A stretch of 64,000 bases of DNA from an uncultured Candidatus Saccharibacteria bacterium (GTDB lineage Bacteria > Patescibacteriota > Saccharimonadia > Saccharimonadales > CAYLGV01). The position numbers were made by a program, and so were the translations under genes. The notes beneath the pieces were generated by a model. That model worked only from the letters and a program-made list of their open reading frames with translations, was not told where the DNA came from and did not search any database. Of the stretch, positions 5,693-46,268 are shown one piece after another. The stretch covers positions 3,656 to 67,655 of the forward strand of contig CAYMZG010000001.1 in the NCBI GenBank assembly GCA_964394925.1, read 5' to 3'. Every line of letters begins with the position of its first letter. Position 1 is the first letter of the stretch.

Positions 5693-7486
<1,794 letters not shown>

Positions 7487-10866: not shown

Positions 10867-11685
10867 CTATACTTGTTCTGTAAAGACAACGATGCGCTTG
10901 CTGAAATCATTAGTACCCTTGATGACTTCGCCGTAACAGCTTATGAGATTCAATCCCGGTTTCGTTGAGCTTATGGGTGCTAAGACCTGATCCATATCAA
11001 CCGCATCAGCAGCATAGACACGCGTTGTAACAACACGAAAGTTATAGGTTATCCCGTCGCCGCGTTCGACTTTGACCGTGTCACCAGCTTGCAAACTCTT
11101 AAGATCGTGGAAAACACCTTTTGTTGTCCAACTCGAGATGTGTCCATCAATCAGCATCACACCTGGCTGGCCAGGCAACGCCGAACGATTGTACCAAGCA
11201 GTATCAAACACATTGCTTGGGGTTGCGACTGCGCCCGTTTTATCGGTGCCAGCCGCAATGATACGTGCATCGACTCCAAGCTTTGGTATTGTAATGAACC
11301 GTGGCAGATTGGGTGCCACCACATAGCTACTATGCATATCTGCAGGTGGTTTGTTGGTGCTGGGTACGTCAGACGATGCCAAAACGCTCGCACCACCCGA
11401 ACTCTTAGCTTGTGCGTTAGCAGCGGCTACCTGCTTAGTGGCCGTGTCACGAGCCTGCGTGTTGGCAGCTTGTGTGCGCCAGCTAAAACCCAGCCCTACT
11501 ACCAGCAAACCTATCGAAATCGTAACGAGTGCGTTGCTGAGCGGAACGACAGTATATCTATATCGAGCCTGTAGCTGGACAAGGATGTCATTCATCTGCT
11601 GACGGATCAACAGCATGCTCGCATAGAGCGTTATTACCCACCAAGAAACATAGCGGTTAGTTGACTGGTTACTTGACTCAGTCAT
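10867..11685 (-). CDS. sortase (class F-like transpeptidase)
   Basis: N-terminal TM segments, then a sortase core: MLIDGHISSW (His), GLNLISCYGEV (TLxTC-type Cys), RIVVFTEQV (Arg). Confidence 0.8.
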   Translation of the reverse strand: MTESSNQSTNRYVSWWVITLYASMLLIRQQMNDILVQLQARYRYTVVPLSNALVTISIGLLVVGLGFSWRTQAANTQARDTATKQVAAANAQAKSSGGASVLASSDVPSTNKPPADMHSSYVVAPNLPRFITIPKLGVDARIIAAGTDKTGAVATPSNVFDTAWYNRSALPGQPGVMLIDGHISSWTTKGVFHDLKSLQAGDTVKVERGDGITYNFRVVTTRVYAADAVDMDQVLAPISSTKPGLNLISCYGEVIKGTNDFSKRIVVFTEQV

Positions 11686-11694
11686 GGCCGTTTC

Positions 11695-12453
11695 CTACTT
11701 CTGCTGGGCGGCTCGTCGGCGAATAACCAACGCTGCCGCTAGCACAACGGTGGCTACGGTTGCATATGCTGCAGCCACGGTCAGCGGATTCTTGGTAGTG
11801 ACACCAAAGCCGGTTTTTGGTGCGCTTACTTGTGGCGTTACTGGAGCTGGCGTTACAACTGGTACAGCAACAACGTTTACAAATGCATCACTACTGTTGT
11901 TTGTTGGATCAGCGTCGACGTACGGCGGATCAATGCACTCGCTTGGCTCAAAGCTGTCGCCACATGGATCGTAGTCGGTGAACTCGGCAGTGTTCTTGAC
12001 CAAGCCAAGATTATTAGCGGTGCTGTGTATTACGAGTGTAGCTGGCAGATTTTCATAAATCTGAAAAGTCCAGTCACCATTATTGAAGCTGCCAACCGAA
12101 ACCTCCACCGTGCCGGCTGCTACATTGTTTGGGCTAATATCTTGAACTGTAACACCACCGAAAGGAGAAAGCCCTTCGCTACTCTTATCAGTTACGGTAA
12201 TTTTCCAAGTAATACTGTCACCAAGATGTGCCTGGACGGCCTCACCACTCGTAGGAGTATCCACATATGGTGCGCCATTAACGCTTACTTGTTTGGTAAT
12301 TGCCAGGTCACAACCCTGGGTAGAAAAACCATCGCCATTTGTACAATACAACCTAGTAACACTGGCGGCATGTGCTTTGGAGACCGCAACAAACGGCAAA
12401 ACAACCGCCACAGCCAAAGCCACTAAAGCAAACTTAATATTCCTCAACACCAT
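11695..12453 (-). CDS. cell-surface protein with C-terminal sortase sorting signal (APKTG variant)
   Basis: Signal peptide ...AVSKAHA/ASV. C-terminus is SAPKTG + FGVTTKNPLTVAAAYATVATVVLAAALVI + RRRAAQQK (motif, hydrophobic stretch, basic tail). Lies 9 nt upstream of the sortase gene. Confidence 0.7.
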   Translation of the reverse strand: MVLRNIKFALVALAVAVVLPFVAVSKAHAASVTRLYCTNGDGFSTQGCDLAITKQVSVNGAPYVDTPTSGEAVQAHLGDSITWKITVTDKSSEGLSPFGGVTVQDISPNNVAAGTVEVSVGSFNNGDWTFQIYENLPATLVIHSTANNLGLVKNTAEFTDYDPCGDSFEPSECIDPPYVDADPTNNSSDAFVNVVAVPVVTPAPVTPQVSAPKTGFGVTTKNPLTVAAAYATVATVVLAAALVIRRRAAQQK

Positions 12454-12550: not shown

Positions 12551-13423
12551 CTATTTCATTAGTTTAGGTAACTCGCGCTTTTTGCGCTCGATCTCGGCAC
12601 CTTCAGCATCATATTGTGACAGGGCGTTAAATAGAGGCATAACGATCTCTTCGGGTAAGGCTCTCAGCTGGCCCTGACTCGTGGGGACCATCACCGAAAC
12701 CGACGAACCCAGTACGTCATTCACGTGATTTGCTTCTTTATAGCGTCGTATTACAGCAAGAACTGCATCGCTCAGCGTAGTGGCAGTCACTGTTTCCTCG
12801 AAGGGCTGCACACCTTCGCGCTCCCATGATGTCAAAATTTGAATAGTGAATGACTCGGAAACCTCGGCCTGCACAACCGCTCCCCGTTCTTGTTGTAGCC
12901 TTGCGAGTCTCACCTGTTGCTCCACAATCAGCTCATCGAGCGTGCGCTCCAAGTGTTTTTGAATGTCAAAGCCATTGGCACGGTTAAGGGCTGCCTGCTC
13001 ATACTGTTTTTTCATGGCATCAAGAACCGCCCGAACGCGTGTACGCGCAACGTCAGTCTCGATTGGATGATGCAACCCATCGGTAATTATCGCTTCGGGC
13101 CTACGAGATAAAACGATCCACTCGCGCACTTCATTAGATTCTGCATCTCGTTTATAAATAACTTTATGAAAACGATCAGCCCGCGTGTAGCCTGCAAATA
13201 CCGTAACGGGCTCATCTTCTCCGTCAATTGCCACAGTAATCTCAGGCGTACGATGAAAGCCAACATCGTCGGTGATTGTCTCGAAGCGCTCGATAAGCGT
13301 ATCAATTCCTCGCACCATAACGGCTGGATCAATGAGTATAGCGCGCTCAATGGCATCAAGCTCCGCCTGTTGACTTGGCTCATTACTATTTATGGGCTCA
13401 ATTTGTGTCTCAAAATTTGACAT
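12551..13423 (-). CDS. hypothetical cytoplasmic protein
   Basis: 290-aa ORF, acidic, predicted helical. No family recognised. Confidence 0.5.
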   Translation of the reverse strand: MSNFETQIEPINSNEPSQQAELDAIERAILIDPAVMVRGIDTLIERFETITDDVGFHRTPEITVAIDGEDEPVTVFAGYTRADRFHKVIYKRDAESNEVREWIVLSRRPEAIITDGLHHPIETDVARTRVRAVLDAMKKQYEQAALNRANGFDIQKHLERTLDELIVEQQVRLARLQQERGAVVQAEVSESFTIQILTSWEREGVQPFEETVTATTLSDAVLAVIRRYKEANHVNDVLGSSVSVMVPTSQGQLRALPEEIVMPLFNALSQYDAEGAEIERKKRELPKLMK

Positions 13424-13534: not shown

Positions 13535-14224
13535 CTACTCTGCTGAGACGGTGAACGTGCCAAACGTATCTGGATGATCATGGTCATGAAATTCAAATGT
13601 ACCAGCTTCGGTAAGGGTAATGGTGTAGTTTTTCTTTTTTGTGGTGAGGGGGAACTCGCTGACACCAGCATACGGGGTATGCGCCGGATGCACCCCAAAA
13701 GCCATCTCTCGCTCCACGCTATCTTGGTTTATGAATGTAAGACTGTCGCACTGCTTTGCTTCGGTGTGTATGGCGTTAACCTTGCCGTTGGTTATATACA
13801 CGATGTGATTCTTGCCAATTTCGTCGCATGCGCCCGTCTTAGTTCCACCAACTTCGGCAATGCCCTCGTCGGTAACCAATTTCTTAGTGGCGTCTTGAGG
13901 TTTCATATTGTAATGAAGGTTGTTCATGATCATGACTGAGCCACCAACCACTACACCAACAATGAATAGTGTGGCAATAAAGAAATACAAATTCCACCGC
14001 GGCTTTGGCCCACGGCCAAGGTGCAAAAAGAACACGACTTGTATAACAACCTGCACAAATGCAAAGGCAAGAATGGCTTTTAGAAGCAGTGATGATACGC
14101 CGATAGTTTTGTGCGTTACCAGATAGTACGGGATAATCGTACAGATCAATGACAGTATAAAACCGGCAATGTAAGACCCCAGTGTGCCCTTTTCTTGGTG
14201 CTCAGATGATGTATGTTCGCTCAT
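13535..14224 (-). CDS. cyoD: cytochrome o (bo3) ubiquinol oxidase subunit IV fused to a ~115-aa C-terminal cupredoxin-like domain
   Basis: The first ~110 aa align with CyoD/QoxD (GSYIAGFILSLICTIIPYYLV...VQVVFFLHLG...MIMNNLHYNM). The remainder (KNHIVYITNGK...DSLTFINQD...AGTFEFHDHDHPDTFGTFTV) resembles Cupredoxin_1. Confidence 0.8.
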   Translation of the reverse strand: MSEHTSSEHQEKGTLGSYIAGFILSLICTIIPYYLVTHKTIGVSSLLLKAILAFAFVQVVIQVVFFLHLGRGPKPRWNLYFFIATLFIVGVVVGGSVMIMNNLHYNMKPQDATKKLVTDEGIAEVGGTKTGACDEIGKNHIVYITNGKVNAIHTEAKQCDSLTFINQDSVEREMAFGVHPAHTPYAGVSEFPLTTKKKNYTITLTEAGTFEFHDHDHPDTFGTFTVSAE

Positions 14225-14835
14225 ACGAAAGCCCCCAGGTACACAATAGTAAAGATAAAAATCCAGACGATATCAAGAAAGTGCCAAAACAGACTGAGCA
14301 TACTTAACTTGCGTGTCATATTCGCTGTCAGACCTCGCTTAATGGTATACCCAAGTGTTACGGCCATCCAGAGCAAGCCAGAAATAATATGCAAACCATG
14401 CGTGCCCACCAACACAAAGAACGATGACATAAAGGCGTTACTACGTAAGGTATGGCCCTCATGAATGAGCGCCGAAAACTCGCGTAGTTCAAGGGTTAAG
14501 AATGCGAGACCGAGTATGAACGTCACCATGAACCAGCCGATGGCTTGGGCCTTGTTGCCCTTTCGCACCGCAATCATGGCAATACCGCAAGTAAAACTAC
14601 TCGTGAGTAGAATGATGGTTTCTGTTAACGCCAGTGGCAGGCTAAACAACTCGCGGCCCGACTCACCGCCCACTGTGTTATTGTGCAGTACCGCATAAAC
14701 CGCAAATAGAATGGCAAACATTAAGAGGTCAGTCATAAGATAGACCCAAAAACCAAACATCGCTCGATCGTTTGCTTCGGCTTCGTGATGGCTGAGCTTA
14801 GGCGTTGCTGCCATGCTTGGAGCCCTTCTTGCCAA
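14221..14835 (-). CDS. cyoC: cytochrome o ubiquinol oxidase subunit III
   Basis: 204 aa, 5 TM, heme-copper oxidase subunit III-like (FGFWVYLMTDLLMFA...HGLHIISGLLWM...FWHFLDIVWIFIFT). ATGA overlap with cyoD. Confidence 0.85.
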   Translation of the reverse strand: MARRAPSMAATPKLSHHEAEANDRAMFGFWVYLMTDLLMFAILFAVYAVLHNNTVGGESGRELFSLPLALTETIILLTSSFTCGIAMIAVRKGNKAQAIGWFMVTFILGLAFLTLELREFSALIHEGHTLRSNAFMSSFFVLVGTHGLHIISGLLWMAVTLGYTIKRGLTANMTRKLSMLSLFWHFLDIVWIFIFTIVYLGAFV

Positions 14836-16909
14836 GACTGAATACCCAGTCCAGACACACTTTGATTAGTTCGCGGAGCCCCATGTCTGAATCGGTGTCA
14901 TAAAACGCGTGGCCATTCGTGGCTGGAGCTGGCTTGGCTGGCGTTGGTACATTATGCTCTTTCTCATAGGCCTCAACCTCAGCAGCCGAAAGGGTGTATT
15001 CTGAATCTTCGCGGAAGCCACGGACGATAAAGGTAATAATGATCGCGACGATCGAAACAACCACCAACCAAGTGATTTCCCATACAAAACCAAAGCCGAG
15101 CATAAAGGCGAAAATTGATAGGTAAATGCCAACGGCTGTGCGTTTGGGCATGTGTATATCCTCGTATTTTGGTGGCTTGTCGCCTTCGGCCTTGATGTCG
15201 AGGAACGCATCACGCGAACGGACCTTAGGAATAGCACGGAAGTTATAAAACGGTGGTGGTGAAGTAGTAGACCATTCTAGCGTTCTGCCCTGCCATGGAT
15301 CGCCCGTGCGATCACGTAAACGCTTGCGATCAATGATGCTGGCGAGGATCTGCGCAAGCTGTAAAACTACACCGAGCATGATAACCAGCCCACCAATAAG
15401 CATGAGTATAAAGAATGGTTGCCAGCCCGTCGAGGCCTCATAGTGATCCATGCGGCGAGTAGCCCCCATGATACCGAGAATATACATTGGTACGAATGAC
15501 AAACAAAAGCCCACAATCCAGCACCAAAACGCGTAACGACCAATGCGTTCGTTCAGCCTAAAGCCGGTGAACTTAGGGAACCAATACGCTATGCCGGCGA
15601 AAATACCGAATAGCACACCACCGATGACCGTGGAGTGGAAGTGCGCTACCAAGAACAGACTATTATGTAGCTGGAAGTCGACCGGCGGGATCGCCAGCAA
15701 GATTCCCGACAAGCCACCAATTGCGAAGATCGCCACAAAGCCCATGAACCACAACATAGGTGTATCGAAGCGGATCTTACCCTTATACATAGTCGCAAAC
15801 CAGTTCAGTACTAATGCTGAGGTTGGAATAGCAATAAACATGGTCATGAGGCCAAAGAAGGCATTTACGTCGGCACTGGCGCCCATAGTAAAGAAGTGGT
15901 GTAACCACACCGAAAGCGCCAACACCGACACGCCTATCAAGCCAAGCACGTTCGACTTATAGCTGGCAATTGACTTACGACTAAAGGTAGCCACAATTTC
16001 CGAGAACACACCAAAACAAGGCAGCACCAGAATATAAACTTCGGGGTGGCCCCACATCCAAATAAGATTGGTATACATCATCGGGTCACCGCCCCCAAGC
16101 ACGGTGAAGAAGTGCGTGCCGAGGTAGCGATCAAAGAACATCAAGAACAGTGTGGCGGTAAGCAGTGGGAAGACTGTTACGGCCATCATCATGCTGCACA
16201 GTGAGCCCCAGGTAAACAGCGGCATGCGCATGAGGCTCATACCAGGAGCGCGCATTTTAAGAATTGTCATAATAAAGTTAATCGCACCAAGCGTGGTACC
16301 AATACCCGAAATCTGCAGACTCCAAATAAGGTAATCCACTCCCACTCCCGGACTAAAGGCCTTGCCAGAGAGTGGCGCTACCGCCAACCAGCCCGTGGCA
16401 GCATACTGACCACCCAAGAAAAAGAACATGTTAACCATGACCACTCCGGCAATAAATAGCCAGAAACCAAGTGTGTTCATAAGTGGTGAAGCCAGATCGC
16501 GGGCACCAATCTGGAGCGGCACGATATAATTAATCAATCCGAACACAAAAGCCATCGCCACAAAGAAGACCATGATGTTACCGTGTGCCGTAAATATCTG
16601 CTGGAAGTGATCAGACGACAGATAACCGTGCGAACTACCAGAGGCCAGTGCCTGCTGCAGCCAAATCATAATGGCGTCGAGTCCACCGCGCAGCAACATG
16701 GCGCCACCAGCGATGAAATACATAATACCGATCTTTTTAGGGTCAACGGTGGTAAGCCACTCTTTCCAAAGCCACTTCCAACGTTTCTTGTAGGTAATCA
16801 GCGCTACAAAGAACAGTGCAATACCTATGAAAGCTACAGAACCACCAATGGTGAACCACTCATGTGGCAATGCTTCAGCATTTAATTTACCAAGGAGTAG
16901 CTGTCTCAT
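14798..16909 (-). CDS. cyoB: cytochrome o ubiquinol oxidase subunit I
   Basis: 703 aa. WMWGHPEVYILVLPCFG (CuB His / cross-linked Tyr) and WLHHFFTMG (His-His) signatures of heme-copper oxidase subunit I. Confidence 0.95.
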   Translation of the reverse strand: MRQLLLGKLNAEALPHEWFTIGGSVAFIGIALFFVALITYKKRWKWLWKEWLTTVDPKKIGIMYFIAGGAMLLRGGLDAIMIWLQQALASGSSHGYLSSDHFQQIFTAHGNIMVFFVAMAFVFGLINYIVPLQIGARDLASPLMNTLGFWLFIAGVVMVNMFFFLGGQYAATGWLAVAPLSGKAFSPGVGVDYLIWSLQISGIGTTLGAINFIMTILKMRAPGMSLMRMPLFTWGSLCSMMMAVTVFPLLTATLFLMFFDRYLGTHFFTVLGGGDPMMYTNLIWMWGHPEVYILVLPCFGVFSEIVATFSRKSIASYKSNVLGLIGVSVLALSVWLHHFFTMGASADVNAFFGLMTMFIAIPTSALVLNWFATMYKGKIRFDTPMLWFMGFVAIFAIGGLSGILLAIPPVDFQLHNSLFLVAHFHSTVIGGVLFGIFAGIAYWFPKFTGFRLNERIGRYAFWCWIVGFCLSFVPMYILGIMGATRRMDHYEASTGWQPFFILMLIGGLVIMLGVVLQLAQILASIIDRKRLRDRTGDPWQGRTLEWSTTSPPPFYNFRAIPKVRSRDAFLDIKAEGDKPPKYEDIHMPKRTAVGIYLSIFAFMLGFGFVWEITWLVVVSIVAIIITFIVRGFREDSEYTLSAAEVEAYEKEHNVPTPAKPAPATNGHAFYDTDSDMGLRELIKVCLDWVFSLGKKGSKHGSNA

Positions 16910-17811
16910 TCGTGTGTATGCCCACCATTATATTTATGAACAATCGTATCATACAGATTCGGGTCGGTCAGTGAATAAAAAGCGGGTGGATTGTTCTCGC
17001 TTGGCTTGAGTAATTCTTCATAGGTTGCAGCGTCAAGTTTATTGGGCGAATTTTGCACCGTACGAACCCATTGATCAAATGTCTGTTTGGTGGTTGCATG
17101 AGCAACAAATTGCATGCCCGAGAACCCCGCCCCGTTAATCTCGGCGGACTTACCGGGATAGTCTCCGAGCTTATCGGCCTGCAAGTTTAATCGATTAACA
17201 TGACCGGTCATGGCATACAGTTGGCCACCAAAGTTCGGCATCCAAAATGAGCTCATCGGTGTCTCGTCGGCGGTTAGATCAAATTCAATTGGTGTGTTAA
17301 TTGGCATTTGTACGTAATTTACGGTGGCAATCTTTTGTTCTGGATAAATAAATAGCCATTTCCACCGCAAAGCTACCACCTGCACCGTAATTGGCGGTTT
17401 ATCACTTGCCAGGGCCTTCCTTGGTTCTAAAGTGTGTGTAGCCGGCACCATCATAAATGCCAGAAGCAGAATGAACGAGGTTGGCACCAACCAAAAACAC
17501 GCGGTAACAAATTTGCCATGATGAGTTTCAGGCTCATGTACTGGTTTCTTATTGGTATCGCGATATTTCCAGGCCGTGAAATAAATAAGGCAGATCGTTG
17601 GTACCGCCAGTATCAACATGACTAAAATCGAATAGAATAACAGGTTATGCTGCTGCTGTGCAATCGCGCCTTTGGGGTTGATGATTGCCAGGTTTTTGCC
17701 ACGTAACATGACGGCGATGAGCACAGCGTACGCCAATGGTAAAACAATAAACGGCCAACGCCTGCGACGTGACTTGACCTTTGAGCTGGCAGTATGTTTT
17801 GTCTTAGACAT
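16906..17811 (-). CDS. cyoA: cytochrome o ubiquinol oxidase subunit II (quinol-type, no CuA Cys motif seen)
   Basis: 301 aa. SAEINGAGFSGMQFVAHATTKQTFDQWV closely parallels the E. coli CyoA GPGFSGMKFKAIA region. ATGA overlap with cyoB. Confidence 0.9.
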   Translation of the reverse strand: MSKTKHTASSKVKSRRRRWPFIVLPLAYAVLIAVMLRGKNLAIINPKGAIAQQQHNLLFYSILVMLILAVPTICLIYFTAWKYRDTNKKPVHEPETHHGKFVTACFWLVPTSFILLLAFMMVPATHTLEPRKALASDKPPITVQVVALRWKWLFIYPEQKIATVNYVQMPINTPIEFDLTADETPMSSFWMPNFGGQLYAMTGHVNRLNLQADKLGDYPGKSAEINGAGFSGMQFVAHATTKQTFDQWVRTVQNSPNKLDAATYEELLKPSENNPPAFYSLTDPNLYDTIVHKYNGGHTHE

Positions 17812-17926: not shown

Positions 17927-18496
17927 CTATTTGCTCGTTGTTGGTTTTTTGGCTGGCGTTTTTGGCTTTGCAGCAGCTTTGCCCAAAAATGCACTACGAA
18001 TCTGGAACAAGAAGTACAAGCCAATGGCGGTGCTAATAGCATAGCCAATAAAGCCGCTAATTCCAGAGTATGAGCCGACATTAATAAACAGTGCCAAGAA
18101 GCCGTACACGATATTTACAAGCAATGCGAGAAACAGTAGATCCCAACCGGCCTTCTTCTTTTGACGCACGCCAGGAAAAGCGGCAACCCATAGTACGCCC
18201 TCGATTGCCAAGACGATAACGCCGAGCCAAACCATAGCACCAACATGTGTAGCTTCGACAGAAACCTTCCCACCATACGCCTGTGAGACATCATTTGCCC
18301 AGCCGACCCACTTATCAACAACATGAGCGGCCTGGTACAACCAGTAGGCCGACAACAACGTGAGGATACCAAATATGAGATTTATCCACGGCAAGATGTC
18401 GACAATGACTTTCTTGGCATTCTCAGGCAACTGATACGGTGCCTTCTTTACAAAAACTTCGTTTAGTTTGTCTTCTAGTTGTTCTCGTGCCCCCAT
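17927..18496 (-). CDS. hypothetical membrane protein (4-5 TM) with Lys/Pro-rich C-terminal tail
   Basis: 189-aa ORF with hydrophobic helices, ending AAAKPKTPAKKPTTSK. Confidence 0.5.
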   Translation of the reverse strand: MGAREQLEDKLNEVFVKKAPYQLPENAKKVIVDILPWINLIFGILTLLSAYWLYQAAHVVDKWVGWANDVSQAYGGKVSVEATHVGAMVWLGVIVLAIEGVLWVAAFPGVRQKKKAGWDLLFLALLVNIVYGFLALFINVGSYSGISGFIGYAISTAIGLYFLFQIRSAFLGKAAAKPKTPAKKPTTSK

Positions 18497-18583
18497 GGCA
18501 ATTCTCCCATTGATTATATGCCTTTAGCATAACGCTTAAACCACGCTTTGAGCAAGCTTATGGTTGTTATCTTTGGTAATTTA

Positions 18584-19126
18584 CTACTTTGAGCAGGTAA
18601 TGGCGTCGGCCTCAGCGGCAGGCACCACATACATAATGAGCCGAATCGGAACTTCTTGAGCCTGCGCAGCGGTTCCGCCCTTGAGCTCACCAATGCTCGT
18701 GGTGAAATGATCCACCTGGTAATTTTTTGTAAGTGGGATAATCGTTTCGGACAAGCGATTTGGATTTATGAATATATCGCCAGCCTTGTAATTGTATTCC
18801 ACAGCGATAACCTTGCTGTTTTTGACATTATAGATGGGGCCGTTCGGGATATCTTTTGGTAGCACATACTGCTTGCCAAGCCCTGGCACACAATCTGTTA
18901 CTACAATGGCTTGTGGCGGGAGTGTAATGGGCGGCGGTGATGGTGGCCGAATAACTACCCGTTCACCGTGTTTACCATAGAAATATGCTCCCACGATAGC
19001 ACCAATGATTAAGGCAATTATTGCAGCGCATTCTAGTAGTTTTAAAATCTTATGATTACGTTTCTTGGGCGGCGCAACAGCAGTTGGCTTTATTGCTTCG
19101 GGCGGTGTTGGTGTAGTCGGCGGCAT
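18584..19126 (-). CDS. hypothetical N-terminally anchored exported protein
   Basis: The track ORF runs to 19231. The internal ATG at 19126 gives MPPTTPTPPEAIKP..., a TM (LLECAAIIALIIGAIVGAYFY), a Pro-rich linker and a C-terminal domain. Confidence 0.45.
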   Translation of the reverse strand: MPPTTPTPPEAIKPTAVAPPKKRNHKILKLLECAAIIALIIGAIVGAYFYGKHGERVVIRPPSPPPITLPPQAIVVTDCVPGLGKQYVLPKDIPNGPIYNVKNSKVIAVEYNYKAGDIFINPNRLSETIIPLTKNYQVDHFTTSIGELKGGTAAQAQEVPIRLIMYVVPAAEADAITCSK

Positions 19127-19260
19127 GGTCAGTCTGCCTTTGTTAACGACATAATTAGCCTTTGGCGTGGATAAGAGTTGTTTTCTGAGGTCATTAGCAT
19201 TAGCATAATAAGTAACACATACCCAAGTCAAGAAAGTGTCGTTGGTCAGTTTTGAAGAGA

Positions 19261-34739: not shown

Positions 34740-37130
34740 TTATATGTATTCCTTCTTAGTAGCAAACTGGAACGCTATGAAACCAGGTAGGATGGGCAAC
34801 CAATAGGTTAGGAATCGATACAGTAACGCCACCGAGATGGCTTTTTCGGGGGTTAAGCCCGCACCAGTTAGGGCGGCCGCCAAACCTGCTTCAGCCCCAC
34901 CAATGCCACCCGGGGTTGGGGTGACTGATGCGGCCGCTACCCCAACGGTAAATACGACTATGGTTTGTAGTGGGGTTATGTGTTGGCCTAAAGCGAGAGC
35001 GCTCAAATAGAGTGCCCCGGCATACGACAGCGTGGTCAGAATGGATGCCGTATATGAACCGAGCAAACGGAACGGATACTGGCGGTAGTCGAATAACGTC
35101 GTACGAATTCCCTTAAGTATGCGTACCGCTTGGCGGCGGAATTTGTGTTTAGTGGTCATAAAAACAAACAGGGCAATCAGAACAAGCCCCACAACTGGCC
35201 AGACCCAAATCGGTATATGCAGCTTAAAATTAAATGCCTCTCGTATAGTAGTGCCACCGAATAGCACCAAAGCCAATAGAATGCTCATGTGCCCGACCAG
35301 TCCCATTAAGTTATTAATCCCCGCAATCGAGCCAGCTTGCGTGAGGCTATGGTGATTCTTCGTTAAAAAGCGTGTATTAACCGCCAGTCCACCAGCTCCG
35401 GCTGGTGCCAACTTACTGGCAAAGCTACTACCAAACTCTACAAGCAGCATGCGTGAATAAGCGATCGGATACAGTGCGAGCGAGCGGTACGACAAGGCCG
35501 CCATTACATAGGTCAGGAATGAACAGAACGTAGCCAGGGCTATGTAATGTGGTTTACCTTCAAGGATTGTTTTAAATGAAGTACTGAGGTCGTTACGCTG
35601 CCGCATGATAAAGATGAGCCCCAGTGTCACGGCCAGAATCATGAGCAGACTCCGCAAACTAATGCGCAAAATATTGATCGGTTTCTCTTTCTTGAGCTTA
35701 GCTTCCGTGATAATCGTGTTACGCAGCTCGCCTAATAATCCTTTCTGTTTCTTCAGCGCTTTACTGCTAGCAGAAGATAATACCGCGTAGCTCAGGTAGC
35801 GACTGGTCATTTCCAGTTCTTCCTTGGTCAAGACCTTCATGGCCGCACGCACGGCGCGCCGACAGCCCACTAAAGTTGCAGATGATGCGATCAGCTCAGC
35901 TCGGTCACGGTTTTTGGCCTCCTCGGATAATCCAGCTTCGGAGAATCCAAAGTCAATCAGCCACGGCTTGCTGTCTTGATCGAGAAAGACATTGGCGCAG
36001 CGCAGATCGCGATGCACAATGTGCGCTTGGTGCAGTAGTGCCACCTGCTTCCAGACCTCCACGAGAACCTGGTCTGTAACCTGGCTGGGCTCGACCCGAT
36101 CAAGTGATTTGCCAGGAATCATATCCTGGGCATGCGCCCACTCATTTGGTGCAACCTCAACAATGCCCCGAACTTTTGGTGTGCGTACACCGGCATCATA
36201 TGCCAAATACGAGATATATGCCTCATGCTCCAGCTGCCGTTTTGGTGTTAAGAATGGTGTTTCGTCTTCGAGACGACGATAGACTACCTTACGCCAGGCC
36301 TTAAAAAGCCAGTCAGCAATATTGTTATCACGGCCAACAACCTTAACAAATACCTTATTGTCGTTATCGAGTGTTACAAAATACGGTACCGAACCACGGG
36401 CATCCACACTCGCCAGCTTCACCGATCGTGCAGGTATGCCAATGCTGCGTAGTTTTTTGCGTATCTTGGTCACCGGTATGGCAGCGTTCTTTTTGCTACC
36501 AAACACAAAGTTGAATAAACCACCATAAAACAGACCAATCGCAAATCCGCCAACCAGATCCATTGGCAAATGTACACCCAAATACAGACGCGAGACACAA
36601 ACCATAATGGCAAGGAGCGTTATAAATTTATGCCAGCGCTTGGGGAGATAGATATAGGCCATCATGGCCAGTACTGTTGCCACTGCGGCATGACCTGATG
36701 GAAACCCATAGGTTCCAATAGAATTATTCTCGCGGACCTGCACATTTTGCAGGAACACATATGGCCGAGCACGAATGTCTAATAGCTTTAAGCCGTAGGC
36801 TGTGTAATATGAAGCAAGGCTTGCCAGGGCAATTTTTAACGCAGTTGCGTAATGTCTTCGTACAGCAACAACAACAGATATGATCAATGCAAAACCGATG
36901 GTACCAAAGATGCTGAACAAGCCAAATAGCACCAAGAAATGGCTGCTCAGTGCATTGATGGTACGAAAAATATTCTGCTCCAATATGCTCGTTCCACTGC
37001 CAGCAATTGCCATAGATACCAAAAAGATTGGCACAGCAATGATGGAATACAGCAGATATATTGGGTTACGGTAGGCCTTGTAGCGCTCTTTCAAGCCACG
37101 TTGTACACTTCGCTCCATATTACTGTTCAT
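34740..37130 (-). CDS. triple-fusion membrane protein: PAP2 phosphatase + protein-kinase-like domain + flippase-like (LPG_synthase_TM/UPF0104) domain
   Basis: PAP2 motifs KLLDIRARP, FPSGH, SRLYLGVHLPMD. Kinase motifs FVKVV, HRDLRCANVFL, LIDFGFSE. C-terminal multi-TM region with TPTPGGIGGAEAGL...LLYRFLTYWLP. Confidence 0.7.
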   Translation of the reverse strand: MNSNMERSVQRGLKERYKAYRNPIYLLYSIIAVPIFLVSMAIAGSGTSILEQNIFRTINALSSHFLVLFGLFSIFGTIGFALIISVVVAVRRHYATALKIALASLASYYTAYGLKLLDIRARPYVFLQNVQVRENNSIGTYGFPSGHAAVATVLAMMAYIYLPKRWHKFITLLAIMVCVSRLYLGVHLPMDLVGGFAIGLFYGGLFNFVFGSKKNAAIPVTKIRKKLRSIGIPARSVKLASVDARGSVPYFVTLDNDNKVFVKVVGRDNNIADWLFKAWRKVVYRRLEDETPFLTPKRQLEHEAYISYLAYDAGVRTPKVRGIVEVAPNEWAHAQDMIPGKSLDRVEPSQVTDQVLVEVWKQVALLHQAHIVHRDLRCANVFLDQDSKPWLIDFGFSEAGLSEEAKNRDRAELIASSATLVGCRRAVRAAMKVLTKEELEMTSRYLSYAVLSSASSKALKKQKGLLGELRNTIITEAKLKKEKPINILRISLRSLLMILAVTLGLIFIMRQRNDLSTSFKTILEGKPHYIALATFCSFLTYVMAALSYRSLALYPIAYSRMLLVEFGSSFASKLAPAGAGGLAVNTRFLTKNHHSLTQAGSIAGINNLMGLVGHMSILLALVLFGGTTIREAFNFKLHIPIWVWPVVGLVLIALFVFMTTKHKFRRQAVRILKGIRTTLFDYRQYPFRLLGSYTASILTTLSYAGALYLSALALGQHITPLQTIVVFTVGVAAASVTPTPGGIGGAEAGLAAALTGAGLTPEKAISVALLYRFLTYWLPILPGFIAFQFATKKEYI

Positions 37131-42025: not shown

Positions 42026-42166
42026 ATGCGCGCGAAAACAGAAAAGTTATGGCATGTTGAATGTGCGGTTATTGTTGCCATTATCATGCTCATGGGCTTA
42101 CAGGCTTTTGTATCGCTTGCCACGATTGGTCTGGTAGCTGCCCGTGCAATTAATATCCTCTGGTAG
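42026..42166 (+). CDS. possible 46-aa membrane micro-protein upstream of cyoE
   Basis: Own translation: MRAKTEKLWHVECAVIVAIIMLMGLQAFVSLATIGLVAARAINILW*. Below the size cutoff of the ORF track. No other support. Confidence 0.25.
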   Translation: MRAKTEKLWHVECAVIVAIIMLMGLQAFVSLATIGLVAARAINILW

Positions 42167-42197
42167 GCCATTCATAGACTATGGAGTCCCTAAAACA

Positions 42198-43052
42198 ATG
42201 CTAAAAAATTACTACCGACTCACCAAGCCCGGAATCATCTATGGCAATGCCATACACACCCTGGCGGGCTACATGCTGGCCTGCCGCGGTCACATTGTTC
42301 TCACCAGCTTACTCTCGGTGATGATTGGCGGGTCGCTGATTATTGCAAGTGGATGTGTCGTTAATAACTACCTTGACAGAAAGATTGACAAAAAGATGAC
42401 GCGCACACGAGAGCGTGCGTTGGTCGTCGGTACTATTCCGGCGCGTTCGGCACTTACTTTTGCAGCCATACTTGGTGTGCTGGGTACGGCCATACTAGCA
42501 ATAGGAACCAATCAAACGACCGTTGTTGTCGGCTTGGTTGGCCTAGTGTCATACGTCATTATTTATGGTTGGGCCAAGCGGAATACCGTGTATGGCACCC
42601 TCGTTGGAACCATTTCGGGGGCCATGCCACCCGTAGCTGGCTATACCGCCGTGACTGGTAAATTCGACTTTGGTGCGTGCTTACTATTCTTGATACTGGT
42701 TTGCTGGCAAATCCCTCACTTTTACGCCGTTGCCATCTATCGGCTTAAGGAATATAAACGTGCCGGCATCCCAGTCTGGCCCGCCGTTAAGGGCATTACG
42801 AGTACCAAAATCCAAATTGCCATCTTTACCTTCTTGTATGCAGTCATGTGCACTATGCTTATGGTTTTTGGTTTCACGGGTTATTTGTATTTTGTAGCAA
42901 TGGGGATCTTGAGTTTGATCTGGTTCTACAAGGCTATGCAAGGCTTTGGCCGGCGCGACAATGGCGCTTGGGCACGCGGGATCTTCGGATTTTCGCTGGT
43001 GCTGTCATTAGCAATGCTCGTACTGTTCACGCTTGGCCCGCTTTTACCATAA
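42198..43052 (+). CDS. cyoE: protoheme IX farnesyltransferase (heme O synthase)
   Basis: ATG at 42198 (MLKNYYRLTKPGIIYGN...) and NNYLDRKIDKKMTRTRERAL UbiA-type motif. The track ORF starts further upstream at GTG 42144. Confidence 0.85.
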   Translation: MLKNYYRLTKPGIIYGNAIHTLAGYMLACRGHIVLTSLLSVMIGGSLIIASGCVVNNYLDRKIDKKMTRTRERALVVGTIPARSALTFAAILGVLGTAILAIGTNQTTVVVGLVGLVSYVIIYGWAKRNTVYGTLVGTISGAMPPVAGYTAVTGKFDFGACLLFLILVCWQIPHFYAVAIYRLKEYKRAGIPVWPAVKGITSTKIQIAIFTFLYAVMCTMLMVFGFTGYLYFVAMGILSLIWFYKAMQGFGRRDNGAWARGIFGFSLVLSLAMLVLFTLGPLLP

Positions 43053-43069
43053 GTGCTATACTGGCTCAC

Positions 43070-43324
43070 ATGCTTATACTACACATTTCAATTGCACTAT
43101 TCGGCCTTGTTTGGACGGCCGTAACCTGGCTTAAGCCGTCACAGACCAAAGTCCAAGCCGCCTATGGTTTAACCGCGGTAACGCTAATTAGTGGCACCTA
43201 TCTGGTGGTCACTACCCACCAGGCACTTATGCACGCCTGTCTCAGTGGCTTATTGTATCTTGGCGTCAGTCTCTGTGGCATTATTGCCGGGCAGCATAAG
43301 CTCGCTCAACAAACAACGAAATAA
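43070..43324 (+). CDS. hypothetical 84-aa 3-TM membrane protein downstream of cyoE
   Basis: In-frame ATG at 43070 within track ORF 42848..43324 (MLILHISIALFGLVWTAVTWL...). The upstream part of that ORF overlaps cyoE and is discounted. Confidence 0.4.
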   Translation: MLILHISIALFGLVWTAVTWLKPSQTKVQAAYGLTAVTLISGTYLVVTTHQALMHACLSGLLYLGVSLCGIIAGQHKLAQQTTK

Positions 43325-43331
43325 TACGACG

Positions 43332-45005
43332 CTAGAAGTGCTCGCGAAGATGCTTCATGGAATATTCCCATGAGGCATCTGTTTTCTTGTGCGGGTTAAA
43401 AATGTTCTGGGGATCAAACAGCTGTTTTACTTGCTTGAAATAGTCCATAATTTCTGGTGAGTACATCTGGTGTAGCCACGGTCCACGCGTCATGCCGTCA
43501 TTATGCTCACCGCTCAGCGAACCCTTATAACTCAATACTAATTCGTTGACCTCTTTCATACATGGTGTAAGTTTATCGCGCTCCGATTGTTCTTCAATCT
43601 TCATAAGCGGGATAACGTGAAAGTTACCATCACCCATGTGGCCCGCCACCGTAGCAAGCATCTTGTACTTGTTTACAATAGCACGCAACTCAGGCAGGAA
43701 CTGTGGTAGGTGTTCGGGTGGCACGACTAGGTCATCAATGAACGGAGCAGTGTGCTTGTCGTGGACTCTTTTGCGAAGTAGGTTGAAGCTTTCCCGTCGC
43801 ATGATCCAAAACTTGCGTGCCTTAGCCTCTGTCTCATCTTCTTCAAACAGTGCTTCGTGACCAAACGGCCGTAAAGCCTCACGCATTGCATGTACTTTCT
43901 GGGCAACAGCTTCTGGTGTTTCACCGTTGAACTCAACAAGTAGCACCATTTTTGGTATGCCGCGCGCTAGTTTAAATAGTTCGGGCAGCAGTTGGAGTCC
44001 GAGCTTAATCATGCCAAACCAGCCGAGATTCTGGTGGAAATAATAGAACAGCTTAAAGCTGAGCATTAGGGTATAATTGTCAAAGCCCTCAAAGGTGGCC
44101 GGGTTAAACTCTAGTACTTTATTAATAAGATCGCCGAGATCATCGGTGTGGCGCAGAAAAACCACCAACGTACCTGAGTGCTGTGGTGCTGGTACCAGGC
44201 GGAATTTGATATCAGTAACAATACCGAGCGTACCCTGCGAACCAATGATAAGTTGATTGAGATCAAAAATGTCTTTTTCGCGATCCCAAACGTTCCACAA
44301 GTGATACCCTGTTGAGTCTTTGCTCACATGCGGCTGAGCGGCCTTAATTTCGTCGTAATGTGTATCGACAAGCTCAAACACCTCTCGGTAAAGCTTACCT
44401 TCGAAATCATCCTGATCCATTTTGGCCTGGAGTTGTTTGCGATTGAGGGGCTTAACGGTGTATTCTTTGCCGTCGGCAAAAATAACTTTCAGCTCCGTTA
44501 CAAATCGTTCTGTCTTGCCAAACTGCAAAGACTTCTCGCCACCAGAATTGTTAGCTACCATGCCGCCGACCGTACACAGATCGCGCGAAGCAGGATACGG
44601 CGGTAGTAACGCACCGTGCTTCAGTGTTTCGGGCTCAAAATCTCTATAGTGTAGGCCTGGCTGTACATGGGCGCTCTCTGAATCAACCGCAAGAACCTTG
44701 TTCATATGCGCAGCCATATCAATGATGATCGAATCATTAATTGCCCCACCCGTCATATCAGTACCAGCACTCCGCGCCGTTAGGGACAACGATCCATTGC
44801 TAGCCTTATGTTCTTTGACATATGTAACGACAGCTTGAATATCCTTGCTGGTTTTAGGCGCAACCACTGCCTGTGGCATCAGCTCAAACATACTAGCATC
44901 GTGACTAAATAACTCACGCGTAGGTGTTGAAACATCGATGTCACCACTAAATTTTGCTTGCTTCAGGCTGGCTTGCAGGTCTTCCATACCGCTTAAGGGT
45001 ACCAT
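43332..45005 (-). CDS. FAD-linked oxidase / dehydrogenase (GlcD / D-lactate dehydrogenase-like)
   Basis: FAD_binding_4-type segment (LTARSAGTDMTGGAINDSIIIDM) and C-terminal FAD-oxidase_C-like part (GEHNDGMTRGPW). Start taken at 45005 (or 44987), because the track start 45086 overlaps the divergent ndh. Confidence 0.8.
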   Translation of the reverse strand: MVPLSGMEDLQASLKQAKFSGDIDVSTPTRELFSHDASMFELMPQAVVAPKTSKDIQAVVTYVKEHKASNGSLSLTARSAGTDMTGGAINDSIIIDMAAHMNKVLAVDSESAHVQPGLHYRDFEPETLKHGALLPPYPASRDLCTVGGMVANNSGGEKSLQFGKTERFVTELKVIFADGKEYTVKPLNRKQLQAKMDQDDFEGKLYREVFELVDTHYDEIKAAQPHVSKDSTGYHLWNVWDREKDIFDLNQLIIGSQGTLGIVTDIKFRLVPAPQHSGTLVVFLRHTDDLGDLINKVLEFNPATFEGFDNYTLMLSFKLFYYFHQNLGWFGMIKLGLQLLPELFKLARGIPKMVLLVEFNGETPEAVAQKVHAMREALRPFGHEALFEEDETEAKARKFWIMRRESFNLLRKRVHDKHTAPFIDDLVVPPEHLPQFLPELRAIVNKYKMLATVAGHMGDGNFHVIPLMKIEEQSERDKLTPCMKEVNELVLSYKGSLSGEHNDGMTRGPWLHQMYSPEIMDYFKQVKQLFDPQNIFNPHKKTDASWEYSMKHLREHF

Positions 45006-45074
45006 TAGCAGTAAATCATAAGCAATATGGTAAAATCTAAACAGTATTAAATAACTCAAGATAACAGATAGAGC

Positions 45075-46268
45075 ATGGCAAAACATCGGGTGGTAATCGT
45101 TGGCGGTGGCTTTGGCGGCGTAAAGACTGCCCTGGAACTATCGGACGACGCACGGTTTCATATAACCCTCATAACTGATCAGACCGACTTTCGCTACTTT
45201 CCAACACTGTATCGAACGGCAACTGGCGGCAGCAAGCGTATCTCATCAATCCCATTGAGTGAGATCTTTGCCGGTAAGCGAGTACATTTACTACATGACG
45301 CAGTAACTGGCATCGACCGCCAGGCTCGCACCGTTACCACCAAGATTGGTCACACTGTAGGCTATGAAGCACTAGTGATTGGTTTGGGCGTTCGTACAAA
45401 TTATTTTCATATCGAAGGTTTGCCTGAACTGTCGTACGGCATTAAAACCATCGATGACGCCGTTGCGCTCAAGTCACATCTGCATGAACAGTTAGTAGCC
45501 GATCACCGACCGGACCTGAATTATGTAGTAATTGGTGGCGGGCCGACTGGTATTGAGCTCGCTGGCGAGTTGCCAGCTTACCTGAAATACATCGCCAAAC
45601 AGCACGGCATGGCGCGCCGGGCGATCCACGTAGACCTTATCGAGGCAGCACCACGTTTATTGCCTCGTCTACCAAAAGACCTCTCTAGACGAATTGCTCG
45701 ACGCCTGCGCAAACTTGGCGTTAAGCTGTACCTTGGCACTACCGTTCAAGCCCAGACAGCCGATGCGCTGATGGTAGGCGGTAAACCAATCCGCAGCCAT
45801 ACCGTGATATGGACCGCAGGTGTTGCTAACCATCCCTTCTTTGCAGAGCACGATTTTCAGCTCGCCAAGAATGGCAAAGTACGTGTTGATCAATATTTGC
45901 AGTCAGAAACTGGCGTATACGTCATTGGTGATAACGCCGACACGCCGTTTAGCGGCATGGCTCAAACTGCACTACACGATGGACGCTTTGTGGCTCAAAA
46001 CCTCAAGCGTCTGGCGAGCAAGCAGGATGCTAAGCCCTACGTTGCCAAGAAACCGGTGTATGTTTTTCCAGCTGGGCCACATTGGGCAGCCGTTTTATGG
46101 GGTCGTGTTCGTTTATACGGACGCTTAGGCTGGATTATGCGATCTTTAGCTGATCTTATTGCCTACCATGACTACGAGCCATGGCAACTTGCTTCAAAGC
46201 TTTGGGTAGCAGCGGGTGATAGTGAAGAAACCTGCCCAATCTGTAATCAACCTCGGCCGAGCGCCTAG
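45075..46268 (+). CDS. ndh: type II NADH dehydrogenase (NDH-2) / pyridine nucleotide-disulfide oxidoreductase
   Basis: Two Rossmann motifs, VVIVGGGFGGVKTA and VVIGGGPTGIELAGEL. Overall NDH-2 layout, 397 aa. Confidence 0.8.
   Translation: MAKHRVVIVGGGFGGVKTALELSDDARFHITLITDQTDFRYFPTLYRTATGGSKRISSIPLSEIFAGKRVHLLHDAVTGIDRQARTVTTKIGHTVGYEALVIGLGVRTNYFHIEGLPELSYGIKTIDDAVALKSHLHEQLVADHRPDLNYVVIGGGPTGIELAGELPAYLKYIAKQHGMARRAIHVDLIEAAPRLLPRLPKDLSRRIARRLRKLGVKLYLGTTVQAQTADALMVGGKPIRSHTVIWTAGVANHPFFAEHDFQLAKNGKVRVDQYLQSETGVYVIGDNADTPFSGMAQTALHDGRFVAQNLKRLASKQDAKPYVAKKPVYVFPAGPHWAAVLWGRVRLYGRLGWIMRSLADLIAYHDYEPWQLASKLWVAAGDSEETCPICNQPRPSA

Follow-up and report, generated by a model that had tools for sequence, protein, structure and literature searches.

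A terminal oxidase operon with the gene order cyoA-cyoB-cyoC-cyoD, all on the minus strand, lies in a stretch of 64,000 nucleotides from an uncultured Candidatus Saccharibacteria bacterium (contig CAYMZG010000001.1 of GenBank assembly GCA_964394925.1, positions 3,656 to 67,655), which is referred to here as the window. The last gene of this operon encodes subunit IV (CyoD) fused, through a conserved linker, to a second domain that is predicted to have a cupredoxin fold and to face the outside of the membrane, and in which the blue-copper site appears to have been lost and four other histidines are conserved as a unit. The oxidase is the main evidence for O2 use by environmental Saccharibacteria, a group of ultra-small episymbionts, and its operon has been treated as a standard cyoABCD(E) set (PMC8407418, PMC11659515). 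The fusion gene is a 229-codon open reading frame (ORF) without interruption, which runs from an ATG at 14224 to a stop codon at 13535-13537, and its start overlaps the stop codon of cyoC by 4 nt (ATGA). The features of the gene, of the operon and of the respiratory genes elsewhere in the window are collected in the table.

The protein shares with CyoD and QoxD, the subunit IV proteins of bo3 and aa3-600 oxidases, the three transmembrane helices and the place as last structural gene of cyoABCD. Residues 1-107 score 91.0 bits against TIGR02847 (curated cutoff 81.45) and 53.7 bits against Pfam PF03626, COX4_pro (cutoff 28.9, E = 2.7e-14), and the whole of E. coli CyoD is covered by residues 5-108 in an alignment (PDB 6wti_D, E = 6e-19); the helices are placed at residues 13-37, 44-69 and 75-103 in an AlphaFold2 model. 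Whereas E. coli CyoD stops at about residue 109, the fused protein runs for about 120 residues further, as a linker and a folded extracytoplasmic domain. A first-pass annotation of this DNA had described the N-terminal part as CyoD followed by extra residues, and this description holds: both family models are matched above their cutoffs, the extension is present, and every peptide that was quoted from it is found in the protein. In the linker, E120 is invariant among 119 homologues, and I122, Q124, G127, T130, G131 and A132 are each at least 90% conserved. The domain behind it is predicted to face outward, an orientation which is supported by the topology of E. coli CyoD, by a positive-inside second loop (R71, K74, R76), by the N-terminal anchor of the stand-alone relatives described below and by the invariant cysteines of the domain.

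Positions of the fusion gene, its parts, the oxidase operon and further respiratory genes in the window (residue numbers are those of the fused protein)
Feature	Position	Strand	Basis
cyoD::cupredoxin fusion gene	13535..14224	-	ORF call, family matches, same-length homologues
CyoD module, residues 1-107	13904..14224	-	TIGR02847, COX4_pro, 6wti_D alignment
Linker, residues 108-132	13829..13903	-	helix 109-120, then DEGI-x-Q-x-GG-x-KTGA
Extracytoplasmic cupredoxin-fold domain, residues 133-229 (predicted)	13538..13828	-	AlphaFold2, Foldseek, HMMER
Cys133 codon, proposed disulfide partner 1	13826..13828	-	invariant
Cys159 codon, proposed disulfide partner 2	13748..13750	-	invariant
Arg172 codon, position of the first type-1 His ligand	13709..13711	-	alignments to amicyanin and to a Saccharibacterial type-1 cupredoxin
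H179-P-A-H182, first half of the four-His unit	13679..13690	-	partly an insertion relative to amicyanin
H213-D214-H215-D216-H217, second half of the four-His unit (H213, H215)	13574..13588	-	D214 at the type-1 Cys position
cyoC (subunit III)	14221..14835	-	TIGR02842, 239 bits, above the cutoff of 224
cyoB (subunit I)	14798..16909	-	best model match 943 bits, E = 8e-284, below cutoff
cyoA (subunit II, quinol-oxidase type)	16906..17811	-	NF007816, 253 bits, E = 1.6e-81, below cutoff
UbiA/CyoE-like protein, haem O synthase candidate	42144-43052	+	Pfam
FAD-linked oxidase resembling D-lactate dehydrogenase	43332-45086	-	Pfam
NDH-2-like flavoprotein	45075-46268	+	Pfam

The extension matches amicyanin (PDB 1aac, E = 1.3e-5 in HMMER with only this domain as query) and the amicyanin model TIGR02657 (E = 2.4e-4), the latter at 21.5 bits and hence short of the equivalog cutoff of 110.2. 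Of the two Pfam families that had been named for the protein at first pass, COX4_pro is matched above its cutoff and PF13473, Cupredoxin_1, only below threshold (15.0 bits, E = 0.026, gathering threshold 27 bits); many close homologues carry a precomputed match to PF13473. An AlphaFold2 run with a 119-sequence alignment (A1; mean pLDDT 85) gives the transmembrane helices, a further helix (residues 109-120) and, behind it, a domain built of beta-strands only (pLDDT 92-97), for which Foldseek returns amicyanin, plastocyanin, pseudoazurin and the purple cupredoxin 5fc9 from the PDB, with E-values from 2.5e-8 to 3e-6 and target TM-scores of 0.68-0.78. With high confidence, the extension is predicted to adopt a cupredoxin fold nearest to those of amicyanin and plastocyanin. 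The proposal of a cupredoxin-like extension is upheld by the sequence matches and the predicted structure alike, and when the model was inspected for the presence or absence of a beta-sandwich, AlphaFold2 and Foldseek showed the cupredoxin fold. Two cysteines, which had been suggested to form a disulfide, fit that role: Cys133 and Cys159 are both present in 119/119 fused homologues, and among the stand-alone homologues Cys133 is found in 137/141 (the other four have gaps) and Cys159 in 139/141. The domain is thus probably stapled by a C133-C159 disulfide.

Although the fold is that of a blue-copper protein, the ligands of such a site are not there. Copper in amicyanin is held by His53, Cys92, His95 and Met98, and the HMMER alignment to the wild-type protein, which has no gaps from G208 to G222, places these residues on Arg172, Asp214, H217 and Thr220, respectively; amicyanin H91-C92-T93-P94-H95 falls without a gap on H213-D214-H215-D216-H217. 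The Asp, His and Thr that had been read at first pass in the places of Cys, His and Met are the residues given by this alignment (D214, H217, T220). Among the homologues, position 172 is Arg in 107/119 and position 214 is Asp in 118/119, and the residues at the four type-1 positions are, family-wide, Arg, Asp, a mixture of Gln, His and Asp, and Thr, Val or Ile, so that the His...Cys...His...Met(Gln) ligand set of type-1 copper proteins is absent. Compared with the type-1 cupredoxins amicyanin and plastocyanin, and with those encoded at two of the metagenome loci described below (L121 and L161), the domain has the same fold, and the same length of ligand loop as amicyanin, but differs by the replacement of His by Arg, of Cys by Asp and of Met by Thr, and by new conserved histidines at positions 179, 182 and 215. 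Since the first His ligand is lost, as Arg172, besides the Cys and the Met, the blue-copper site is, as judged from these alignments, abolished rather than modified, and the residues that replace its ligands suggest that an Arg172-Asp214 salt bridge fills the former copper pocket.

In the 119 homologues, H179, H182 and H213 are each found in 115, H215 in 113 and D214 in 118, and the residues conserved to at least 95% each are H140, H179, H182, H213, D214 and H215; strong conservation extends to R172, D160, N166, D168, Y185 and E190. The HDHDH motif described at first pass stands in its first part, H213-D214-H215, which is conserved as F-H-D-H, but not in its last residue, since position 217 is His in only 38/119. 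Each of the four histidines (H179, H182, H213, H215) is conserved to at least 95% in the fused proteins and at least 92% in the stand-alone ones, and all four are retained in 238/267 fused and stand-alone domain sequences. Their losses go together: in the 265 scorable sequences, both pairs (179/182 and 213/215) are intact in 238 and both are broken in 16, whereas 179/182 is intact with 213/215 broken in 5 and the reverse is seen in 6 (Fisher p = 8e-17, a value that overstates independence, as the sequences are related). Sequences with broken pairs are spread over many clusters defined at 50% identity, and the degenerate copies retain C133, C159, D160, D214 and Y185. The four histidines therefore behave as a single co-evolving unit.

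It is plausible that the four residues together form one site, since in the cupredoxin topology the loop behind strand 4, on which H179 lies, passes beside the residue preceding the type-1 Cys, and since they are lost jointly; in plastocyanin, the corresponding place is that of the acidic patch around Tyr83. The frame of the second pair recalls other copper sites. In multicopper oxidases the histidines of an H-C-H motif ligate the trinuclear copper cluster as type-3 copper ligands, and in NirK the His preceding the type-1 Cys ligates the catalytic type-2 copper; the motif is seen as H499-C500-H501 in the sequence of E. coli CueO, and H213 and H215 flank the equivalent, former Cys position. CueO H446 and H448 correspond to Ala175 and Gly177 of the domain. 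Descent from multicopper oxidases, with HDH as the counterpart of HCH, was considered and set aside, as a profile of the domain scored -1.6 bits against E. coli CueO with the HCH not aligned, and the likeness is one of position only. Metal binding by the four histidines is indirectly supported by their conservation, their co-loss and the compensation described below; this binding, the identity of the metal and a role in supplying CuB are what we infer.

The fusion is widespread. A protein database search found 894 homologues of the fused protein, and the best 120 of these are nearly all 212-247 aa long with at least 92% query coverage, the single fragment having 180 aa. A scan of genome loci, with one genome per species, yielded 230 loci, and the counts given here use the best 80 of them: 80/80 encode the fusion, always after cyoA-B-C, at 45-70% identity, and 59 carry a Saccharibacteria, Saccharimonadales, Saccharimonadia or Saccharimonas label, while most of the others go under 'Patescibacteria' or 'bacterium'. 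Across environmental Saccharibacteria, CyoD normally comes in this fused form. In a neighbour-joining tree, one clade holds 43/45 sampled fused domains, its sole 'free' member being a fragment, and the fusion therefore arose essentially once. The National Center for Biotechnology Information (NCBI) names the fused proteins 'cytochrome o ubiquinol oxidase subunit IV' and the free ones 'hypothetical protein', and one homologue (P0007) is named 'plastocyanin' by the Joint Genome Institute (JGI). As to the question, raised at first pass, of whether domain databases hold this architecture, the combination of PF03626 and PF13473 is already implicit in the matches precomputed for part of the homologues. 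A full-text literature search on oxidases and cupredoxins of Saccharibacteria and Patescibacteria found no mention of the fusion or of the His cluster, and the architecture appears to be implicit in domain databases and undescribed in the literature. A single-domain Patescibacterial cupredoxin has been read as a plastocyanin (PMC12931201).

The domain also exists as a protein of its own. When only the domain was used as query in an exhaustive search without a profile, 491 relatives came up, 147 of them at E <= 1e-10. Most of the relatives are about 130-145 aa long, carry a hydrophobic anchor at the N-terminus and conserve the same residues as the fused domain. Their gene context was read at 8 stand-alone loci and then, with a profile from a 40-sequence subset (A3), at 80 metagenome loci, 54 of which were informative and 26 uninformative owing to short flanks. 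Among the 54, the stand-alone gene lies directly upstream of cyoA on the same strand in 16 (with a gap of 37-132 bp in 15), divergent from cyoA in 9 (194-511 bp) and otherwise beside cyo in 3; in the other 26, no cyo gene lies in the flanks, which are 1.2 kb or longer on either side. Operons with a free copy beside cyoA have no cupredoxin domain after CyoD; the CyoD gene products have 117 and 128 aa in two such cases (L081 and L085), and several unfused CyoD proteins end in DEG(I), the motif that opens the linker of the fused ones. As the domain occurs either fused or as an operon-linked stand-alone protein, this is a Rosetta-stone pattern in which the domain works with the oxidase fused or unfused and is a dedicated oxidase partner.

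Fused and free copies appear to complement each other. Among 82 fused-gene loci, the four histidines are intact in 54, the window protein included, and degenerate in 28, and an intact or nearly intact free copy is found in the same locus for 6/28 degenerate as against 1/54 intact fusions (Fisher p = 0.006); the free copies carry all four histidines in 92/94. An intact four-His site thus appears to be needed roughly once for each oxidase system.

As to the origin of the family, canonical membrane-anchored type-1 cupredoxins with amicyanin-type loops (FHCQPHPYM, YICTIHPDM) adjoin free four-His copies at three loci: L121 (about 6061-6303, and a second one on the minus strand near 7205), L161 (upstream of 1206) and L112 (upstream of 2052). 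One such type-1 cupredoxin aligns with the window domain in BLASTP at 27% identity (E = 9e-7), with its His on R172 and its Cys on D214, and on this alignment the four-His family probably descends by duplication from the lineage's own amicyanin-like blue-copper protein. Like the oxidase, these type-1 neighbours are copper proteins, and they may also be what others have called 'plastocyanin' in Patescibacteria.

Away from cyo, the free copies have recurrent neighbours, namely a membrane protein of 208-223 aa, a 212-aa multi-His protein, DUF3817, and an RnfD-like/FAD/NAD reductase with ApbE; after clustering, none of these neighbours could be assigned to a family that is informative. The multi-His one (about 212 aa) is a membrane protein with invariant histidines in hydrophobic segments (MWSHY, LHPG, FYHxLRLG), and its gene is divergent from the free four-His copy at seven loci not near cyo (L121, L142, L144, L156, L157, L165, L168). 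No convincing Pfam or PDB family was found for it, DUF2127 lying just below cutoff, and the idea that it is a cupric reductase was dropped as unsupported (Ferric_reduct, E = 1.7). An ApbE-like flavin transferase and/or a 508-aa RnfD-like/FAD/NAD-binding membrane reductase stands near some stand-alone copies (L113, L120, L137, L138, L142, L144), which hints at an extracytoplasmic flavin-based electron-transfer module. In addition, a 613-aa P-type ATPase with a TPCP motif in the membrane-spanning part, of heavy-metal P1B-like type, is encoded two genes from a stand-alone four-His copy at L087 (1626-3467, minus strand) and at L096.

The partner of the fused domain in the window is, to judge by its conserved residues, an intact and copper-requiring quinol oxidase subunit, since relative to E. 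coli CyoB (1fft_A) the window CyoB keeps the high-affinity quinol-site residues R71, D75, H98 and Q101, the CuB ligands and cross-linked tyrosine (H284, Y288, H333, H334) and the haem ligands H106, H419 and H421. CyoA, which also matches Pfam COX2 and COX_ARM, is without the CuA entry site. CyoB has 703 aa, and its alignment with E. coli CyoB stops at 652, leaving a tail of about 50 residues without counterpart; cyoC as called, from a TTG at 14835, has 38 nt in common with cyoB, and this start may be misplaced. Scans for promoters and terminators at the operon boundaries gave no signal exceeding shuffled background. Upstream of the operon, genes for two membrane or anchored proteins of 189 and 215 aa (17927-19231, minus strand), and downstream of it the gene for a 290-aa protein (12551-13423, minus strand), have no family match; they are kept beside cyo in only 2-3 of 80 related loci and are therefore probably not part of the oxidase system. 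None of the 47 window proteins scanned is Sco, Cox11, CopC/CopD, an HMA-domain protein or a copper ATPase, which is weak evidence, as the window is only a portion of the genome. A distal respiratory cluster (42144-46268), about 28 kb from the fusion gene, encodes the last three proteins of the table, homologues of which lie within 6 kb of cyo in the best 80 loci (cyoE in 49, the FAD oxidase in 21, NDH-2 in 11); on these assignments, cyoABCD and the cluster would make up a minimal chain from lactate or NADH through quinone to O2.

Several known proteins resemble the domain in part. AcoP of Acidithiobacillus ferrooxidans is a membrane-anchored cupredoxin, tightly bound to its oxidase, encoded in oxidase gene clusters and needed for optimal activity (PMC4059628); like the domain described here, it is a single-domain cupredoxin partnering a haem-copper oxidase, but it has a complete Cys/His/His/Met (green) site, its partner is an aa3 cytochrome c oxidase, and it has no fusion with subunit IV. 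Cox11, the CuB metallochaperone, has a periplasmic beta-domain tethered by an N-terminal anchor (PMC6696091). It shares with the stand-alone form the anchor and the extracytoplasmic beta-sandwich, and serves the copper of subunit I, whereas Cox11/CtaG differs in its immunoglobulin-like fold and in its dimeric binding of Cu(I) through Cys thiolates, and has no sequence or ligand similarity to the domain. The CxC motif of Cox11 (PMC6696091) is absent from the extension, which has only two Cys, 26 residues apart, and Pfam and NCBIfam scans gave no Cox11-type match. CopC and YcnI, which belong to copper-uptake systems, are membrane-tethered, cupredoxin-like Cu(II) binders with His ligands (PMC12362106), and the likeness extends to their being tethered or fused to membrane proteins in monoderms and to their Cys-free, His-based Cu(II) sites; they differ in that they rely on a histidine brace, in which the N-terminal His of the mature protein binds copper through both amine and imidazole and which is impossible for an internal domain (residues 133-229), and in that their partners are CopD importers rather than an oxidase. 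The fused protein has no Pfam match to CopC or DUF1775. With multicopper oxidases and NirK, the domain has in common an H-x-H in the same frame as H-C-H or the His-Cys pair, but no homology can be detected, it comes as one domain only, Asp replaces the central Cys, and His179 and His182 lie off the canonical positions. Cupredoxin accessory modules of haem-copper oxidases are thus known as such; the ligand arrangement and the attachment point are new here.

What the domain does for the oxidase can be approached from its conserved site. The reading that we put forward, as a tentative one which seems quite possible but somewhat short of probable, is that the four-His cluster binds copper outside the membrane and serves CuB by capture, hand-off or maintenance. 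The oxidase would be served by a domain dedicated to it, which comes attached to CyoD or as an independent, membrane-anchored product of a gene linked to the operon; the four histidines of this domain would bind a metal, probably Cu(II), at the membrane's outer face beside the enzyme; and the bound copper would be captured and handed to CuB of subunit I, or CuB would be maintained. Such a domain would be a built-in functional analogue of Cox11 or of CopC/YcnI in a minimal-genome organism. The conservation and co-loss of the four histidines, the linkage to cyo, the compensation by free copies and the intact CuB ligands of CyoB point in this direction, as do the type-1 copper proteins encoded beside some free copies and the precedents of Cox11, CopC/YcnI and AcoP. 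In E. coli, subunit IV is reported, in a study attributed to Saiki et al. (1996, J Biol Chem), to assist the binding of CuB to subunit I. Several points, however, weigh against this reading as a whole: 26/54 informative stand-alone genes are not beside cyo; 22/28 degenerate fused copies have no replacement within about 6 kb, although one may lie elsewhere in the genome; it would be unusual for an assembly factor to be joined permanently to a structural subunit, and a standing role fits at least as well; Cox11, Sco and PCuAC, the known chaperones of oxidase copper sites, use Cys/Met ligands and Cu(I) rather than an all-His site; and, since the fold is kept when the His cluster decays, the fused fold has a structural, metal-independent role as well. 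The strongest form of the proposal, in which the domain is a 'type-1-less' cupredoxin with an undescribed mononuclear, four-His, type-2-like copper centre, an obligatory extracellular part, fused or encoded with the operon, of the only respiratory oxidase of Saccharibacteria, and the first dedicated copper-delivery or maintenance factor of a bo3 oxidase, is speculative and somewhat unlikely.

Other explanations have to be weighed against this. The first-pass annotation had itself allowed for a frameshift or assembly error that joined cyoD to a downstream gene; beyond the unusual length nothing speaks for such an artefact, to which we give practically no credence, since the ORF is uninterrupted, the linker is conserved, and the same architecture recurs, at 45-78% identity, in 80 genome assemblies and in hundreds of proteins from metagenomes, and thus in at least 80 independent genomes. 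It is also very improbable that the domain is a blue-copper electron carrier of the plastocyanin or amicyanin type which feeds the oxidase: the amicyanin fold, the length of the ligand loop, the JGI name of P0007 and the reading of Patescibacterial single-domain cupredoxins as plastocyanins (PMC12931201) would agree with it, but Cys has become Asp in 118/119, the first His Arg in 107/119 and Met Thr, Val or Ile, while CyoA lacks the CuA entry site and the quinol site of CyoB is complete.

Two further alternatives concern the four histidines and the fold. The histidines might hold a redox-active, type-2-like copper at the outer face, as a standing subunit that takes part in superoxide dismutation, in the handling of NO or nitrite, or in a cupric/ferric relay. 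H213 and H215 stand in the H-C-H frame of multicopper oxidases (CueO H499-C500-H501), the frame also matches the H-C pair of NirK whose His binds type-2 copper, a permanent fusion to a structural subunit suits a standing function, the type-1 cupredoxins encoded in tandem with stand-alone copies could donate electrons, and in about 7 loci the adjacent, divergent gene encodes the conserved multi-His membrane protein; the oxidase of Saccharibacteria has, moreover, been discussed as an adaptation to oxic habitats (PMC8407418). We nevertheless consider a redox role unlikely, as the domain has no type-1 centre to supply electrons, the profile search gave no sequence similarity to CueO, the multi-His neighbour matches no haem or reductase family, and one third of the fused copies are without the His cluster. 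A metal-free module, which stabilises or oligomerises the complex, docks it to a membrane protein or the cell wall, or makes contact with a host, with histidines that are structural or pH-sensing, would account for the 28/82 fused copies that have lost the His cluster but preserve fold, linker, both Cys, D214 and Y185, and for the Arg-Asp pair in the former metal pocket. CyoA, too, is a cupredoxin that lost its copper, and the dimer of E. coli bo3 shows a contact between subunit IV of one monomer and subunit II of its partner (PMC10037687). A purely structural module is all the same an improbable full account, as it leaves unexplained the 92-97% conservation and joint loss of the four histidines (p = 8e-17) and the preferential pairing of degenerate fusions with an intact stand-alone copy.

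Two other observations were made in the window. A sortase gene adjoins that of a DUF11-repeat surface protein with a hydrophobic, positively charged C-terminal tail (10867-12453, minus strand), a pair that fits a monoderm envelope with sortase-anchored surface proteins. At 34740-37130 on the minus strand, a protein of 796 aa combines a PAP2 phosphatase, a protein-kinase-like domain and a lysyl-phosphatidylglycerol-synthase transmembrane region, an unusual three-part architecture.

The route by which CuB is inserted into bo3 oxidases is unknown (PMC10588857), and for the copper supply of this centre, the His-rich extracytoplasmic domain of subunit IV is a concrete candidate. Subunit IV of these bacteria has so far been annotated and discussed as an ordinary CyoD, and the extra domain, together with its stand-alone paralogues, changes the reading of their respiratory module. 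For the evolution of copper proteins, the family would represent a natural experiment, in which an Arg-Asp pair has apparently taken over a blue-copper pocket and a cluster of four histidines has newly formed around the old Cys position.

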